From positions 96,001 to 160,000 of IMG/VR virus record IMGVR_UViG_3300033555_000001: a stretch of 64,000 bases of DNA; one strand, written 5' to 3'. The notes beneath the pieces are model-generated. The model was not told the origin of the DNA and searched no databases. It was given only the letters and a program-made list of their open reading frames with translations. The stretch is from a virus. Lineage: Duplodnaviria; Caudoviricetes. The first letter of the stretch is position 1, and each line of letters begins with the position of its first letter. Both the position numbers and the translations under genes were made by a program. Of the stretch, positions 27,258 through 33,883 are shown piece after piece.

Positions 27258-27300
27258 GAATAATCTGATAATAAATAAGACGACACGACACGGAGGAATT

Positions 27301-27549
27301 ATGGATCAAACAAATTCAATTACAGTAGATGGTATTAGCTATGATGCAGGGCAATTCACACAAAGCGTGCAGCAAGCCGTAAGCATTTATAAAAACTTTC
27401 AGGCTGATTTGCAAAAAGAGCAGCTTGCGGTTATTAAGACTCAGGCTGCACTTGACAATATTGGCAAGCAAATTGGCGAAGCTGTTAAAACAGAACTGGC
27501 TGAGAAACTTGCAAACGCGTCAAAGGTAGAAACTGGGTCAGCCGCCTAA
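27301..27549 (+). CDS. Small coiled-coil protein
   Basis: GGAGG SD; ITVDGISY followed by coiled coil. Confidence 0.7.
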   Translation: MDQTNSITVDGISYDAGQFTQSVQQAVSIYKNFQADLQKEQLAVIKTQAALDNIGKQIGEAVKTELAEKLANASKVETGSAA

Positions 27550-27619: not shown

Positions 27620-29929
27620 ATGACTACAAATCAACAATCCAGCAGTATCTCGCACATTGAAGACCTGAGTGTAGATGAGTTTTTAAACTTGCTCCGAAAT
27701 ATCTCTACCCAGCACGCCACTGAGAAAATGGACGGCTCTAATCTGTGGATTGGGGTAGACGAAAACAACACGCTCTTTACTTCGAGAGAGGGCAAGCGCT
27801 CGGGCTCTAGCCGGTGCTATTCTCTGGATGACTGGCCTGATGTGGCCGCCTTTAATCAATTTAAAGCAGCTCATGCTGCACTCGAATTAAAATCCGCTGA
27901 CATCACCAAAATCATGCCGCCTGGCTCCATGGTTGAGGCCGAGGTGTTGTTTGGCAGGCAACCTAATAGCGTCATTTACGGCAGTGGAAATAAGTCCTAC
28001 ATCGCCTTTCTGCGCGGTGTAAATGGTACCTCAGACGCAGTGGTTGATAATTTAAATTCCCAGTTACAAAATCAAGAAGTAGAAGTCACGGTTGAGCTGC
28101 TTGACACCTCAGACGGTGAAACGCTGGATAAAACACGTGAAAGTTTTCGGGTACAGTTCACAACACCACAAAAAATCGATTCAGCCAGTTTGCAGGGTGC
28201 GGATGTTACTGAGCAATTAACGGCTCTTGAGGCTTTTTTGCGGGCTGAGTCTGCTGTTGCCGGGTTGAATAACAAAGAGCTCATGCTGACGTCGCTGACA
28301 CAAGTTAAAAAAGATGCGCGGCCAGAAGTAAAGGCTGCCAGAGAGGCAGTGCTGGCCCAAGTGCAGCGCGAATTTAAGATTCCAATCAAGCAAGTACTGC
28401 TGGACAAGATTGTAAAAAAGCTTAAATCGGCTCTCAGTGATGAACCGGATGCAGGAATTGGAATTGAGGGCATTGTGCTGCGTGACCCAACCACTGGCCG
28501 ACAGGTTAAAATTGTTGACAGAGATACGTTCAGCATTATTAACCGATTCAATCAAGCAGTACGTGGTGAGATTCAAGGCGCGCTGAACACAACTGATCCT
28601 GATTCACCGCTTGAATCGCGGGGCGGTTTAGTTGGAACACTGCGAATTAGAATTGCAGACGTGCTTGGTAACAGAGAGCTTGCTCGGCCGGGTGCAGTAA
28701 AGAAAATTCTGGAACCAATTAAAGGTGAAACACCAGAGCAGGCAATTAGAAACTTTGCTGACACAATGGCCGGTATTAATGATTACACGGCGATAAAGAA
28801 AAAAGTACTTGCAATGACTGCTGGTACTGCCACTGAGTTAAAAGAAAAGCTTGAGGATTTTAAAGAGAACCAGAGCGGTTATTCGCTTAAATTAAAAAAT
28901 GGCACTGAGCTTAAACTGTCTCCTGAAGTAATAAAGCGTACACTGCTCTCTTTTGCTGAGGCAAAGAAAAATCTTACCGTGCTGTTTGATAAAGTAAAAG
29001 TAACAACATCTCTGGCGCAGCTCTTGGCAATTTTATACGGGGTGCAGGCCAAAAAAGTTCACCAGCAAGTACCGGTTGAAGAGCGTCTCTTGGAAAATCG
29101 TGGGCACGGTGAAATTGACCGGGTTGAGTACAACAAAAAAGATCAGTACATGTTATTGAACTCTTATTTGGCCACTGTGCTGATGACAATGCTTATTCAC
29201 CACGAACACGACACAATTGGCGCGCGACGGCTCAGAGACAGAAAAAATTACATGATAAAGCGCTGGCACAGCGACATGAGCCCGCTGAATTTCTGGGGAT
29301 ACGTGATCTGGAGAAATGAAAAGCCTGATATTAAAAAGCAACTTGCCACTCGAACTCAGCAAGCGCTTGAACTTGCAACAAAGAAGATTATGCCGGTTGC
29401 CTGGAAAATGCTGCACATGCAGTTCTCCTACAATAAAGAACTAAAAATCAGGTGGGTTGAGCATCAAAAAATGTTGCACCGGTTGATCGACGTTGCTGGT
29501 CTTCGCTCTGAAAGACTAAATACGATGCTTGATAACATGATTGAATGGCCGGCACTGACGTCTGACGAAAAGAACAAGACCATAAATCGACTGTATCTGT
29601 ACGCGCAACAGTTTGTACCACGCTCTAGCCTGTTTGCTCGGTTGCGTGTGATACAGACAAATCTGCTGTTAAATGCTACTGGAACTAATACCCAAATGGT
29701 AGAAAGTCTATTAAAAGCTGTTACTTCAATTCCTGAAGAAGAGGGTGATGGCGGACCGCCAAGTGGCGTTTCAGTCTCTACACCTGCTTCAACACACACC
29801 GGTGCCAGCAGCATAGCCGCTCTTCCAACTCGTATTGGTGATAGTAAAACTATCATTAAGCGCAAGCGCAATCCAGGCGCAAAATTGACAACTCTAAAAT
29901 TCCCAGATCCCAGGAAAGCCGCTAAATGA
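27620..29929 (+). CDS. Covalent nucleotidyltransferase (RNA-ligase-like) domain fused to long helical extension; probable virion protein
   Basis: TEKMDGSN (I), SR, EAEVL (III), IEGIVLRD (IV), VKIV (V); basic C-tail. Confidence 0.75.
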   Translation: MTTNQQSSSISHIEDLSVDEFLNLLRNISTQHATEKMDGSNLWIGVDENNTLFTSREGKRSGSSRCYSLDDWPDVAAFNQFKAAHAALELKSADITKIMPPGSMVEAEVLFGRQPNSVIYGSGNKSYIAFLRGVNGTSDAVVDNLNSQLQNQEVEVTVELLDTSDGETLDKTRESFRVQFTTPQKIDSASLQGADVTEQLTALEAFLRAESAVAGLNNKELMLTSLTQVKKDARPEVKAAREAVLAQVQREFKIPIKQVLLDKIVKKLKSALSDEPDAGIGIEGIVLRDPTTGRQVKIVDRDTFSIINRFNQAVRGEIQGALNTTDPDSPLESRGGLVGTLRIRIADVLGNRELARPGAVKKILEPIKGETPEQAIRNFADTMAGINDYTAIKKKVLAMTAGTATELKEKLEDFKENQSGYSLKLKNGTELKLSPEVIKRTLLSFAEAKKNLTVLFDKVKVTTSLAQLLAILYGVQAKKVHQQVPVEERLLENRGHGEIDRVEYNKKDQYMLLNSYLATVLMTMLIHHEHDTIGARRLRDRKNYMIKRWHSDMSPLNFWGYVIWRNEKPDIKKQLATRTQQALELATKKIMPVAWKMLHMQFSYNKELKIRWVEHQKMLHRLIDVAGLRSERLNTMLDNMIEWPALTSDEKNKTINRLYLYAQQFVPRSSLFARLRVIQTNLLLNATGTNTQMVESLLKAVTSIPEEEGDGGPPSGVSVSTPASTHTGASSIAALPTRIGDSKTIIKRKRNPGAKLTTLKFPDPRKAAK

Positions 29930-32900
29930 CATCTCTTATTAAAGAATTCAACAAGGGCGATCAGCAGCAGAGCCTCAAGTCTGCCGACGGCAGTGATGCC
30001 GGTGCTGCAGATTTAAACAAGGCAGTAGACGTCAAATTCTCACTAATGAGAAATATGATTAACCGAGACGGCGATGTTACTGGCGCTGACGTTCACGACT
30101 ATCTGGAGCGTGCTAAAGACCTCAACAATGAAATTGATACCGTTGGATTTGCAATTGAAACCGACGACGGCGAAATCATAAAAATATATGTTAACGCAGA
30201 ACAGGCCACGGCCTTTGAAGCTGAAATGTCTACCTTGTTAGGTTTAGAGGGCGATTCAGAAGAAGCAATCAATACACTGGCGCAGAAATTTGACATTGTT
30301 GACGTGGTTTGGCCAGATGATCCGGCTGATCCGGCCACTGACCCAGACGGCGAGTTGGGTATTGACGATGATCTCTCTGATCTTATGGGAGACGACGAAG
30401 TTGAAGTTACAGATGCTGACGCCGTGACTGACGCAGACGCTGCTCCTGAAGCCGACGCTGTTGCACCAAAGAAATCGCTTATGAAGTCCGTGCTTGGCAA
30501 TAAAGACGAGCCAGCAAACGACGAAATTACAGATGATTCCGACAAAGAAGCTGACGCGGATGAAGAATCAGATGAAGAGCCAGAATTAGACGATGATGGA
30601 AATCCGGTAATTGATGACAATGGAGATCCTGTTCTCAAGAAGAAAAAGAAAAAAGAAGAGCCAGCAAAAGTTAAAACTGAAGGCTTATCTCGCCTCTCAA
30701 AAATTTCAGAAGATGCCAAGGCTGAAATACAACAACACGTGCAGCAAGCAGAAGAACGTGGTAACAAAGGAAAGTACTGTATTGCTGCGGTTGTTACGGG
30801 CGGCATACGCGGTAGAGTTCAGTTTGATGTCAAGAAAAGTGGTCAGGTTCAGTGTTTTGACGACAAAGAATTAGCTGTAAAAGAGGCCAGCCGGCTTAAC
30901 ACAGAGCGTAATATGGCTGGCGCAAAAGCGCACTTCAGCTATTCACCAAAACTTATCGAGGGAAATATGAAAATTACTGAACTGACGCAGAGCACGCAGC
31001 CAATCATGGAAGCTGAAGGCGAAGATATGAAGCTTGATACGGCGTGGAAGGGTTTGGCAAACAGACTCAAGCGTCCGTACGAGAAAAAAATCGTTGCTCT
31101 TTTGAGCGCAATTGGTATTCCCGGCCGCATTGCAGCAAATGCTGAAGGTATCAAAGAAAGCATTGAAGCAGGCGGAGATGTTATTCGTCGTGCTGGTCGT
31201 AAACAAGGGCTGTTTAATCAGTTCTTTGATCAGTACACTGGTGGTGGTGCTGAAGCAGTTACCGAAGCTAAAAAGCGCGGTGGCCGTGTTCAAAAGATTT
31301 TAGAATCAGTGCTGGTAAGGTTGGGCCTGCCAGAGTCAATGACTACAACTGATGGCGCTGGTATGCTTGCAGCAGTATTTTCCCGCGCAGCTGCTAAAGT
31401 TTCGGCTGATGGCGAGTTAGAAACAACGCTTATGCAGTTAGCAAAAGCTATGGGTGTTACCACAGCCGAAGTAAACGAAGATGTTGTTACTGAAGAAGTA
31501 GATGTTGGAAATGATGAATATGCACAAAGCGTAATTAAACTGTGTATGGCACTTGGTATCCCTGAGCGTCAACTACAATTTCAACGTCCTACATTAATCA
31601 AGAGCCTGCGCGACATGCGCACAAAGCTACAGAGCCGCGGTACTATAATGCAGCGTATGGACGCTCTTGTTGCACTGCTAGACAAGAATACGCGTAAAGG
31701 CCCAGCTCCAGCAATGGAGAGTTTAACAGAAGCTTTTGGTCAGCTCAAAAAATTCTCTGACGCGGCTATGAGTGCGCGCGATGGTGGTGGTTATTTGGAT
31801 ACTCCTTCTGCAGGGCCTGCCCTGATAGCAAAATATGATGGTGAGGATCCAAATAATACTGTTTTAATTCTGGCAATTGACAGTGACCACAGCAATAAAA
31901 ACAAGCTTTTAAGAGTTGCCATTGAAGATGACATGGACGGTACTCTTAAGGCAAAGTACTTTACAGATGACAAAGAAGGATACGCATTAGCTCTTGACTA
32001 CGCAAATAAAGTTCGCACTAGCAACTTTAAGTCTACCGTACAAAAAATATGGAAAGATAGCGATGCAGTTACTAAAATAGCAGCGAAATTATCAGACCCA
32101 GAGGGAGCAAAGAGCTTGCGCAAGGGTACATACACGCCGGGCGAAGAGTTTAGAATTTCAATTACATATGATTCTCCCAAAGACGCGCCGACTGCTGCGG
32201 ATTTAAAGAGAGCATTTTATCCAGAATTTAAGAGTGTTACAATACAAAAACCTTCTGAATATTTTAAAGATGCAAAAACTTATACATATATCTTTGACTA
32301 TAACGAAAATTTTAAATCAAAGCCTACTATGGAGAGCTTGACGACAGAGAAAAAAGCGATTGCTAGGGTAAAGGCAGCTTTAATGCAACCTCGTGATGCT
32401 CAAGATCTTCGTGAGACTCAAGATGAGCGTGGCGAAGATTTTGTAATGACTGTAGCTTATGATTTTCCTGAGAACGCACCTACCGTAGCAGAACTAAAGG
32501 ACGCTCTAGCTCCAGAATTTAAAAAAGTTCGACGTGAACGGTCACAACGAGATCGTAACGTGGCAATTTATTACTTTCAATACAACAAAGGCTTTAACGA
32601 ACTGCCAACAATGGAGAGCTTGACCGAGGCATTTGGCCCGCTGGAAGCACTGTCTCACTCTGATTTGCAGAACTTTAATTTGGATGAGCCAGTTGCAGGA
32701 CCTGCGTTAATGGCTGGCTATGAAGGTGGTGGCACTCATGAGGATACTGTTCTTGCACTTGGTGTAGATCCAGATGCAGATGATGAAAACAAATCACTGC
32801 GAGTTGGTATTGATGGTCCATGGGACGGCATGCTGCACGCTAAGTACTTTCAAAATAATAAAGAAGGCTACAAGGCCGCGCTTGATTACGCTAACATGCT

Positions 32901-32958
32901 GCGCACCGCTAATTTAAAATCAGGCGGTCGCCCAAAGGGCTGGAAAGACAATAACTAA
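29926..32958 (+). CDS. 1010-aa modular acidic protein, probable internal-head polyprotein
   Basis: D/E-rich linker, many [ILV]-x-E sites, three PxMESLT repeats separating duplicated domains. Confidence 0.8.
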   Translation: MTSLIKEFNKGDQQQSLKSADGSDAGAADLNKAVDVKFSLMRNMINRDGDVTGADVHDYLERAKDLNNEIDTVGFAIETDDGEIIKIYVNAEQATAFEAEMSTLLGLEGDSEEAINTLAQKFDIVDVVWPDDPADPATDPDGELGIDDDLSDLMGDDEVEVTDADAVTDADAAPEADAVAPKKSLMKSVLGNKDEPANDEITDDSDKEADADEESDEEPELDDDGNPVIDDNGDPVLKKKKKKEEPAKVKTEGLSRLSKISEDAKAEIQQHVQQAEERGNKGKYCIAAVVTGGIRGRVQFDVKKSGQVQCFDDKELAVKEASRLNTERNMAGAKAHFSYSPKLIEGNMKITELTQSTQPIMEAEGEDMKLDTAWKGLANRLKRPYEKKIVALLSAIGIPGRIAANAEGIKESIEAGGDVIRRAGRKQGLFNQFFDQYTGGGAEAVTEAKKRGGRVQKILESVLVRLGLPESMTTTDGAGMLAAVFSRAAAKVSADGELETTLMQLAKAMGVTTAEVNEDVVTEEVDVGNDEYAQSVIKLCMALGIPERQLQFQRPTLIKSLRDMRTKLQSRGTIMQRMDALVALLDKNTRKGPAPAMESLTEAFGQLKKFSDAAMSARDGGGYLDTPSAGPALIAKYDGEDPNNTVLILAIDSDHSNKNKLLRVAIEDDMDGTLKAKYFTDDKEGYALALDYANKVRTSNFKSTVQKIWKDSDAVTKIAAKLSDPEGAKSLRKGTYTPGEEFRISITYDSPKDAPTAADLKRAFYPEFKSVTIQKPSEYFKDAKTYTYIFDYNENFKSKPTMESLTTEKKAIARVKAALMQPRDAQDLRETQDERGEDFVMTVAYDFPENAPTVAELKDALAPEFKKVRRERSQRDRNVAIYYFQYNKGFNELPTMESLTEAFGPLEALSHSDLQNFNLDEPVAGPALMAGYEGGGTHEDTVLALGVDPDADDENKSLRVGIDGPWDGMLHAKYFQNNKEGYKAALDYANMLRTANLKSGGRPKGWKDNN
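31714..32637 (+). repeat. Three in-frame direct repeats ATGGAGAGYTTRAC (MESLT) at 31714, 32329, 32611
   Basis: Read directly in DNA and protein. Confidence 0.85.
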
Positions 32959-33341
32959 TGCTGTTAAGCCAAATCAGAGAGGAAGTTTCGCAAAAGCAGC
33001 TTGACCAAGTTGAGCTCTTTGCGGACCGGTTGTGGGGTAGGTTGGGCGTTGATGTGTCGTTTACTCGGCACTTTATTGAGCGGCTAAATGACTCACGTAA
33101 TGGAAAAGAAATTTCCTCGGCAGAACTGATTAGGCTGTTTAAAAAAGAGTATGAGGCCTATGGCGATAAAATCAGCGGGATTACCGCTGATGGCGAAGCT
33201 GTAATGTTAGATCTTTTGACAAGCATTAATTTGCCATTTGTGATGAAAACCGCGCGTGACGGTTCCAGAGAACTTGTCGCAAAGACGGTAATGCGCAAGA
33301 AAGATTTTAAATCCAGTGATCAAATTTACAAGGTTCAATAA
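32958..33341 (+). CDS. Hypothetical protein, possible RelE/BECR-fold RNase
   Basis: FTRHFIERLNDSRN and C-terminal KTVMRK strand. Confidence 0.6.
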   Translation: MLLSQIREEVSQKQLDQVELFADRLWGRLGVDVSFTRHFIERLNDSRNGKEISSAELIRLFKKEYEAYGDKISGITADGEAVMLDLLTSINLPFVMKTARDGSRELVAKTVMRKKDFKSSDQIYKVQ

Positions 33342-33883
33342 TGGAACCAGTTGAAGTAGATGGTTGGAATGTTGCGCACTTAAACGGCGGGTTGCTCTTA
33401 AGCTCAAACGATTTTATGGTGCAGTTTAGCCCATCAGAAGTTGATAAGTTACTTAACATTCTAAACACCCAAACCCCCGGAAAACTGCGTGACACGCGTG
33501 GCGATGTTGTTACCGTAATCCCTGAAAAAAATCACGTGATCCTTACTAGAGCCTCTGATGAGATATACCCTGGTGGTATTATTCTTCCTGTAGACGCGTT
33601 CTCTGATTTTGACGAGGATGAGCCAATTGTAGAGGGCATTAAACCAGCGTTTAGACGAGTTGGAAATAAAATTAAGCGCGGTTATAGAGTTACTAGTGGT
33701 CGCCGTAAGGGTCGAGTAATTGTAAATCGTGCTACTGCAAATAAGCCGCCAATCAGCGGCCGGACTCGCGCTAAGCTAAGAATTGCTGCTCGTAGAAACA
33801 AATTTGTTCGGGCACTAAAATCTAAAATGACACGCAGAAAAGGCGCAAGTATCCGCTTACGCCGAATGAACCACACGGATTAA
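33341..33883 (+). CDS. Probable virion protein with highly basic C-terminus
   Basis: IVE then R/K-rich YRVTSGRRKGRV segment. Confidence 0.7.
   Translation: MEPVEVDGWNVAHLNGGLLLSSNDFMVQFSPSEVDKLLNILNTQTPGKLRDTRGDVVTVIPEKNHVILTRASDEIYPGGIILPVDAFSDFDEDEPIVEGIKPAFRRVGNKIKRGYRVTSGRRKGRVIVNRATANKPPISGRTRAKLRIAARRNKFVRALKSKMTRRKGASIRLRRMNHTD

Follow-up and report, generated by a model that had tools for sequence, protein, structure and literature searches.

The window, a stretch of 64,000 nt, corresponds to positions 96,001 to 160,000 of a 310,728-bp genome record of a T4-related jumbo phage (G000:96001-160000). It holds an operon of a small open reading frame (ORF), a 769-aa gene, a 1010-aa gene, a 127-aa gene and a 180-aa gene, and the product of the 1010-aa gene, designated P0066, is the subject of this report. 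P0066 is almost certainly a modular, duplicated and mosaic protein. It is also probably, though by no means surely, a polyprotein of small head cargo modules that would be packaged and cut by the prohead protease. The features of the locus, together with those of the other loci referred to below, are collected in Table 1.

The three MESLT repeats reported by the first-pass annotation were all located in the single ORF of P0066, at aa 597, 802 and 896 (nt 31714, 32329 and 32611), in the contexts PAMESLTEAFG, PTMESLTTE and PTMESLTEAFG, respectively. They are spaced by 615 nt and then 282 nt, as had been stated, and the first and third lie 897 nt (299 codons) apart. Each of the three units begins with (P-A/T)-MESLT, and the units follow the order linker-A-B-linker-B'-linker-A'. 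The proposed paralogy of the two pairs of modules was confirmed, with 61/121 identical positions between A (aa 597-715) and A' (aa 896-1010) (50%, E 8e-35), and 35/100 between B (aa 702-801) and B' (aa 799-895) (35%, E 9e-20). No further copy of the A and B domains was found in the rest of the 310,728-bp genome. Together with the units preceding repeat 1, about 10 modules are present in the 1010-aa chain. The inner cassettes are AT-richer and diverged, as had been claimed for the first of them, with GC contents of 0.41 (A), 0.36 (B) and 0.43 (B') vs 0.48 for A', and GC contents at third codon positions (GC3) of 0.34, 0.28 and 0.30 vs 0.43 for A' and 0.44 for the window. At the DNA level, repeats 2 and 3 have 14 nt in common (ATGGAGAGCTTGAC), and repeat 1 differs from both at most silent positions. 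The same arrangement was recovered in the Logan assembly of the sole public run with the stretch, probably the source sample, as one 56.6-kb contig at a depth of 24.7 with zero differences. No deletion variant lacking the cassettes was present in the contigs of this single DNA run, and contigs cannot show rare variants.

Table 1. Features of the P0066 locus and of related loci (positions refer to the window unless another locus is named; residue numbers are those of P0066)
Feature	Position	Strand	Remarks
P0066 gene, single ORF (1010 aa)	29926..32958	+	holds all three MESLT repeats
Leader MTSLIKE(F) and conserved N1 domain (aa 1-130)	29926..30315	+	N1 57-73% identical in nearly all homologues
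Acidic low-complexity spacer (aa 131-260)	30316..30705	+	from the translation; no cross-family alignment
N2, then three helical N3 units (aa 363-447, 448-523, 524-596)	30706..31713	+	
Repeat 1, PAMESLTEAFG	31708..31740	+	putative cut after E602; [LIM]xE in register in 39/39 aligned homologues
Inner A module (aa 597-715)	31714..32070	+	fast-evolving; without terminal GGRPKG motif
B module core (aa 716-801)	32071..32328	+	N-terminal helix from about aa 702, overlapping the A tail
Repeat 2, PTMESLTTE	32323..32349	+	L-T-T-E, non-canonical vs L-x-E
B' module (aa 802-895)	32329..32610	+	length as the free-standing 93-aa B gene
Repeat 3, PTMESLTEAFG	32605..32637	+	putative cut after E901; [LM]xE in register in 24/24
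Terminal A' module (aa 896-1010)	32611..32955	+	orthologous copy; ends in LRTANLKSGGRPKGWK
End of A' module (aa 994-1010)	32905..32955	+	LRTxNLKxGGRPKGWK tail
Candidate T4-type late promoter core TAAATA	27272..27277	+	upstream of the operon
769-aa ligase-like nucleotidyltransferase gene	27620..29929	+	weak PF09414 RNA_ligase match
127-aa gene	32958..33341	+	
180-aa gene	33341..33883	+	
182-aa free-standing gene P0078	6340..6888	-	C-terminal half is the EPG(W/H)YVVDHMDKPV module; from tblastn of variable inserts, 40-60% identity, E to 3e-19
Prohead protease gene	G000:178565-178972	-	Peptidase S77, PF03420
Three tandem small genes	L006:3869-4912		common leader MLL[KR]EL[LM][KN]L[STN]E; third gene is the B domain

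A search of 5.8 billion proteins yielded 65 homologues of 560-1460 aa, all metagenomic. None of the 65 has a Pfam domain on record, and the 1010-aa protein itself matched no Pfam or PHROG family above threshold. A common plan, consisting of N1, acidic spacer, N2, N3 and one terminal A, was shared by 42 homologues, and the B module was absent from all 42. The A modules of these orthologues (n=42) are 46-80% identical to A' and 30-46% identical to inner A, and are always nearer to A'. The closest relative, P0001 (715 aa), is encoded at a syntenic locus (L005) with the order helicase, two small genes, 772-aa gene, 715-aa gene, 126-, 181- and 50-aa genes and exonuclease. It carries a single MESLTEAFGP followed by one A, which is exactly the architecture to be expected from the in-frame removal of 897 nt that the first-pass annotation had envisaged. 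Because P0001 and the usual plan have one linker and one A, P0066 is considered to carry an in-frame addition of 897 nt (299 codons) relative to the usual architecture. No relative of the A-B-B' block was found among proteins of 164-523 aa. Neither tblastn of the whole protein against GenBank phages nor megablast of 20 kb gave a match, and cultured relatives were found via the N1 domain and the upstream gene only. By sequence comparison, the family is assigned to T4-related jumbo phages, with uncultivated relatives and, more distantly, RsoM2USA and XacN1.

Across the family, coverage profiles showed conserved cores plus rare or unique inserts, and the variable non-acidic segments of 66 proteins fell into 27 clusters, mostly singletons. 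The borders of inserts lay within 12 aa of [LIV]xE[AGSDE] in 60% of 80 cases vs 27.5% at random, and 0/1000 random draws reached 60%. In P0003, P0005 and P0011 three unrelated modules stand between ...QVNE↓ and ↓AKAFKVREPGWYVV (↓ marks a putative cut), where P0013 and P0014 are without any, and the exchange falls exactly between ...VNE↓ and ↓AKAFKV. Internal duplications, which were sought by a chunked self-search, were detected in P0013, P0041 and P0045; in P0013 a module with EPGWYVVD occurs twice, and in P0041 one module is repeated, before N3 and after A. The architecture is thus variable across orthologues, with about 27 kinds of insert exchanged at [LIV]xE linkers, and the invariant architecture that the first-pass annotation had named as refuting its reading is not what the orthologues show. 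At one locus (L011:4216-6001) all that is called of the family gene is a C-terminal fragment of 190 aa (P0073), and 1.8 kb following a 741-aa ligase-like gene are left uncalled; this gap could reflect a frameshift, a gene-calling failure or an interrupted gene.

The motif at the A junction was read from an alignment of 44 A modules, with E-x-x-L-x-E-A-F-G-x-L-E-A as the consensus before and into the module. In 44/44 sequences E stands at P1, with L, I or M at P3 and A or G (E once) at P1', and P2 is variable (T, M, F, N, L, I, D, A, S or Q). The T4 gp21-type protease cuts after Glu in L/I-x-E (PMC5694885), and the [L/I/M]-x-E↓A/G junction matches, as expected for such a site, the pattern of a putative T4-type prohead-protease target. 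The three N3 units of P0066 are each preceded by [IV]-x-E (IME↓AEG, VTE↓AKK and VTE↓EVD), and the N3 junctions of orthologues read VTE↓AE, VSE↓AKK, VNE↓G/A/D and LGE↓E. A T4-type prohead protease is encoded in the genome (E 9.3e-24, above the curated cut-off; Table 1), and the scaffold-like and major capsid protein-like products of its head module show a similar motif (ALLE↓G, HVNE↓D and QVAE↓S). AlphaFold modelling gave FNELPTMESL, which precedes A', and GFNELPTME, which follows B', a predicted local distance difference test score (pLDDT) below 50; on account of these low values, the joint before A' and after B' is modelled as a flexible linker. The conserved junction, the encoded protease and the disordered linker lend support to the earlier proposal that the repeat may be a prohead-protease site, except at repeat 2, which is non-canonical. 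MESLT did not hold as a standard repeat family-wide. In most orthologues E, Q, N or K stands in place of the Met.

Many genes of the genome begin with T4-like leaders of the capsid targeting sequence (CTS) type, such as MITFKEFLGE, MRFKEFLAE, MILKQLLQITE↓AK and MILRELIALTE↓AI, and its own leaders that end in ITE↓A or LTE↓A include MILKQLLQITEAK and MILRELIALTEAI. The N-terminus of the P0066 family, M-[SK]-L-[LI]-[KQ]-E-F, is conserved, with [LI]xE in register in 32/35, and the MTSLIKE(F) leader of P0066 resembles MITFKEFLGE and MRFKEFLAE. The MTSLIKEF leader is without a second I/L-x-E at residues 8-10, and the free-standing A and B genes described below have fuller leaders. A link between polyprotein modules and head-core genes is suggested by a 180-aa protein (G000:178430, minus strand), which is encoded between the protease and scaffold genes and led by the CTS MILRELIALTE↓AI. 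It shares a DYYG(I/V)NVLF...KQW segment with a module of the L017 polyprotein, with 43% identity over 42 aa (E 2e-8).

Both duplicated modules also occur as independent genes. When the B/B' profile was searched against 1.84 billion representatives, three real relatives and three spurious repeat proteins were obtained, and no relative was found in IMG/VR. One of the relatives, P0067 (93 aa), consists of an entire B domain led by MLLKELMKLTE↓AK, and the end of this leader aligns with MESLTTEKK of B'. B' is 51% identical to P0067 and 47% to P0070 but only 35% to its neighbour B. The gene of P0067 is the third of the three tandem small genes in L006, which have the leaders MLLRELLKLSEAK, MLLKELLNLNESI and MLLKELMKLTEAK, respectively. 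Further CTS-like genes on this 5.4-kb contig, starting with MKLHELKPYELLEAK and MKNLTFKEHLFLMEAR, lie beside an Endonuclease VII gene. By comparison with known phages, the gene layout of L006 appears classical for T4-type internal-protein (IP) loci. For A, a length-restricted search retrieved P0077 (117-118 aa; L009, 3 contigs), a free-standing A gene starting MMFKTLRMLTE↓AFSALEA. This gene has a ribosome-binding site of its own and lies downstream of an unrelated ORF and upstream of a PD-(D/E)XK exonuclease gene. Judged from these sequences, A and B both exist as independent genes, with leaders ending in L-T-E↓A like the internal repeats. The EPGWYVVD module likewise occurs in another polyprotein (L017), directly behind an internal KLTFKEFLLAE↓, which is to all appearance a full T4-like targeting sequence within a chain. 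In the free-standing P0078 this module is preceded by LGIKE↓GAEHFKVTEPGHYVVD, and a TAAATA lies 27 nt upstream of the start of the gene. At least 12 family members were further seen to carry EPG(H/W)YVVDHMDKPV as a cassette in frame, and the module also occurs in a 145-aa ORF (L018).

The origin of the extra cassettes was assessed from a maximum-likelihood tree, which places inner A and A' as sisters (support 86/89), the former on a branch of 1.76 and the latter on one of 0. In all three repeats serine is encoded by AGY and leucine by TTR, as against TCA and CTC in the closest relative. The tree and codons would fit a within-lineage duplication followed by fast asymmetric divergence, and the low GC3 of the inner units would also fit import. 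In approximately unbiased (AU) tests, trees that join A' with the orthologues and exclude inner A were not rejected (p 0.15-0.43). The first-pass annotation had suggested that the repeats let the phage accumulate or exchange cassettes; the family does swap modules at linkers, but by the tree the extra units of P0066 look more like duplicates than imports, a choice that the AU tests did not decide. The idea that the repeat serves as a recombination anchor was not sustained, as the silent sites of linker DNA are not conserved between phages: MESLTEAFG is spelled ATGGAGAGYTTRAC... in P0066 and ATGGAATCACTCACG... in its closest relative (L005), and the DNA of the ...QVNE↓ and ↓AKAFKV junction differs at silent sites among L012-L016. 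Because of this lack of silent-site conservation, breakpoints may lie at linkers because events that kept the frame and the domains intact survived, and not because recombination was targeted there.

The A' model (pLDDT 72.7) gave no PDB match by Foldseek. The B' model (pLDDT 77.2) is a small alpha/beta domain, for which the best PDB matches were GspL/EpsL periplasmic domains, a generic fold, with template modelling scores of 0.55-0.68. The ESM Atlas gave no usable match. Since the A' and B' models match nothing specific, an anti-defence role of the cargo is pure conjecture. In the B' model MESLT starts the first helix, and F14, L17, E18 and A19, past the motif, are also conserved in A modules. 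Inner A keeps all 14 invariant columns of the family. The last residues of the A module, LRTxNLKxGGRPKGWK, hardly vary and form an AT-hook-like tail with a GRP core, and in inner A the GGRPKG tail is replaced by STVQKIWKDSD; DNA binding by the tail is a guess from its sequence.

As for the surroundings of the gene, the candidate promoter core of the operon lies within AATAAATA at 27270-27277, 24 nt before an ATG at 27301, and is followed by GGAGG. Two CTS-led genes, at G000:188273 and 187876, have a CTAAATA upstream with matching geometry. An exact copy of the T4 late promoter, TATAAATA, is absent near the 1010-aa gene, and no public RNA runs are listed as containing the stretch; from its upstream sequence, the 1010-aa ORF may be expressed late. 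The 769-aa and 1010-aa genes overlap by 4 nt, and the stop codon of the latter overlaps the start of the next gene. Because the gene ends overlap in this way, the three genes look translationally coupled. The match between the 127-aa protein and PHROG 23027 is confined to the C-terminal end of the latter (488-602 of 602), so that in other phages the protein appears to be the end of a much longer one. The operon-coupled 180-aa ORF has an extremely basic C-terminal third (RRVGNKIKRGYRVTSGRRKGR...RRKGASIRLRR), and in RsoM2USA a small basic gene (436) sits at the same place; the 180-aa ORF may encode a DNA-condensing internal protein.

A connection to the virion is provided by the ligase-like neighbour. 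In P0045, P0064 and P0065 the ligase-like protein and N1 form one polypeptide. The 769-aa protein shares 31-33% of its residues with RsoM2USA_438 (E 1e-59 to 3e-71). In RsoM2USA the genes 438 (ligase-like) and 437 (N1, 45% identity) are adjacent and followed by the same exonuclease. RsoM2USA_438 begins ...MLTFKQYAQPILTE↓G, and gp437 begins MTKFLQSLLE↓K. ORF438 is among the ten most abundant bands of purified RsoM2USA virions identified through LC-MS/MS (liquid chromatography with tandem mass spectrometry; PMC8504454), and agreement of the ORF numbers in that paper with the locus tags was verified by the sizes of ORF359, 361 and 383. The mass of ORF438 is given there as 51.69 kDa vs 62.4 kDa computed from the GenBank coding sequence (L019, 309479-311161), and a product of about 54 kDa would remain after cuts at ILTE21↓G and SLLE509↓D. 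The mass gap may be due to processing or to a different ORF model and was not used as evidence for processing. In PA5oct, the genes around the ligase-like homologue, just after the primase, are annotated as structural proteins by electrospray ionization (ESI)-MS/MS. The text of the XacN1 paper contains no mention of ORF347 or ORF350. Taken together, the virion links (ORF438, the fusions, the PA5oct neighbours and the promoter core) make packaging of P0066 plausible, and a ligase-like enzyme packaged in the capsid would be a lead of its own.

From the observed anatomy, family-wide mosaicism, motif conservation, free-standing homologues and presence of the protease, we infer the packaging, cleavage and cargo function of P0066. 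In the layout of the family, a capsid-targeting-like leader is followed by N1, the acidic spacer and modules of 8-12 kDa, each behind a flexible linker with [L/I/V/M]-x-E at its end. The chain would be produced late and enter the prohead, possibly with the ligase-like protein encoded upstream, to which it is fused in some phages. The protease would then cut it into separate internal proteins leaving with the DNA. The extra 897 nt would have arisen by in-frame duplication or recombination at a linker, and the inner copies would then have diverged fast. It is possible, and put forward here tentatively, that such chains form a second, in-frame cargo route, in which modules would move between CTS-led genes and a polyprotein cut by the head protease; the phage would thereby have a changeable, stoichiometrically linked kit plus a packaged ligase-like enzyme, and cassettes would be gained by linker duplication followed by fast divergence.

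Several observations weigh against this proposal. The gene adjoins those of primase, helicase and the PD-(D/E)XK exonuclease, outside the head module; the 769-aa protein is without a leader, unlike RsoM2USA_438, and the ligase-like homologue of PA5oct was undetected by virion MS. As for the sites, MTSLIKEF has its L-x-E at residues 5-7, whereas T4 has it at 8-10, repeat 2 with its L-T-T-E offers no canonical site, many junctions in the family have V at P3, and the tripeptide is common, 27.5% of random positions lying within 12 aa of [LIV]xE. The linker DNA shows the ordinary silent-site divergence between phages. No enzyme fold was matched by the A' and B' models, which gave no functional clue.

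Of the other explanations, the strongest, which we regard as unlikely but deserving of serious attention, is that P0066 is a multidomain protein of the ordinary kind, in which a tandem duplication took place within the gene and the chain of which stays intact. ESLTEAFGxLEA would then be the first element of A, MESLTTEKK the first helix of B', and [LIV]-x-E incidental. The conservation of F14, L17, E18 and A19 indicates that part of the repeat belongs to the fold, and MESLT opens a helix in the B' model; yet at the A junction P2 is free while P3 is conserved (L/I/M) and P1 invariant in 44/44 sequences. A duplication in situ would account for the grouping of inner A with A' in the tree, [LIV]xE often occurs by chance and repeat 2 is without a canonical site. 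An intact chain accounts less readily for the free-standing modules, whose leaders carry the same motif and are shared with unrelated neighbour genes, for the swap points exactly at E↓ and for the matching protease in the genome.

An improbable explanation is that P0066 is a non-virion accessory of replication or repair that acts with the ligase-like enzyme, for example as a flexible replisome scaffold. The location between primase/helicase and exonuclease, with synteny kept in L005, L011 and RsoM2USA, and the fusion with a nucleotidyltransferase would suit such a role, and the basic GGRPKGWK tail of A could touch DNA. The presence of the ligase-like homologue ORF438 in purified RsoM2USA virions argues against it, as do the genes around the PA5oct homologue, which are MS-confirmed as structural despite following the primase. 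The candidate late promoter and the CTS-like leaders of the free-standing modules point in the same direction. It is very improbable that the repeats mark separate genes with internal initiation at the three ATGs, or an assembly artefact, since the ATG in every repeat, which the first-pass annotation had pointed out, is mostly not conserved as Met in orthologues and has no Shine-Dalgarno sequence before it at 32329 and 32611, no stop codon separates the units, and the independently assembled 56.6-kb contig has the same arrangement.

The proposed packaged polyprotein was compared with known systems. In T4, the internal proteins IPI, IPII and IPIII and Alt carry a CTS (Mullaney & Black 1996, as summarised in PMC3012670 and PMC5694885). 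According to these summaries, the T4 leader brings small diverse cargo to the prohead core, the gp21-type protease removes it by cutting after Glu in an L/I-x-E context, and related phages keep the leader but differ in their set of cargo. The present genome likewise has the protease and many T4-like leaders. T4 has one gene per cargo with an N-terminal leader, whereas here up to about 10 modules stand in one chain with the motif internal, and the P0066 gene lies outside a classical IP locus, with the packaging and cleavage of its product putative. Polyvalent proteins are mosaics of 2-15 modules, duplicated or rearranged, which are predicted to be packaged and delivered with DNA, some of them processed (PMC5512222; Iyer, Burroughs, Anand, de Souza and Aravind 2017), and the P0066 family resembles them in its many modules and in its mosaic and duplicated architectures across relatives. 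Their defining feature, however, is the presence of enzymatic or anchor domains, such as MuF, ART, MPTase, PBECR and lysozyme, whereas no Pfam or PHROG domain was found in the P0066 family. Their processing was proposed to occur via their own peptidase domains, whereas the P0066 family would use the prohead protease and has very small modules.

In phiKZ, 201phi2-1 and SPN3US, a gp21-related head protease cuts after Glu at A/S/G-x-E, several times in some internal proteins (PMC5694885 and PMC10052503). Unlike the P0066 family, these proteins lose long propeptides and are cut at another motif, and they have not been presented as chains of independent modules open to exchange. Promoter early stem-loop elements (PeSLs) have short conserved flanks delimiting cassettes that are inserted, deleted and swapped among T4-type phages (Arbiol et al. 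2010, PMC2839356). They are intergenic promoter/stem-loop DNA elements, whereas the P0066 joints are coding, in frame and unconserved at silent sites. The closest principle is accordingly that behind T4's internal proteins and CTS, the closest protein class is the polyvalent proteins and the closest precedent for shuffling is the PeSL. No description of in-frame arrays of CTS-type cargo modules was found in the literature; the earlier impression that this is not a described system holds in that respect, but the array extends the T4 CTS/internal-protein principle and resembles polyvalent proteins.

If the chain is uncut, the locus represents a domain duplication of the ordinary kind, in a family of proteins about which little is known. 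The cargo idea is testable in cultured relatives with published virion proteomes (RsoM2USA, XacN1 and PA5oct), and the present phage is a useful case of fresh expansion, with one old and one fast-evolving copy of each of two modules. If the linkers are cut, the injected cargo of many uncultivated giant phages would become readable from sequence, and capsid cargo could evolve by exon-shuffling-like steps within one gene, besides the gain and loss of genes.

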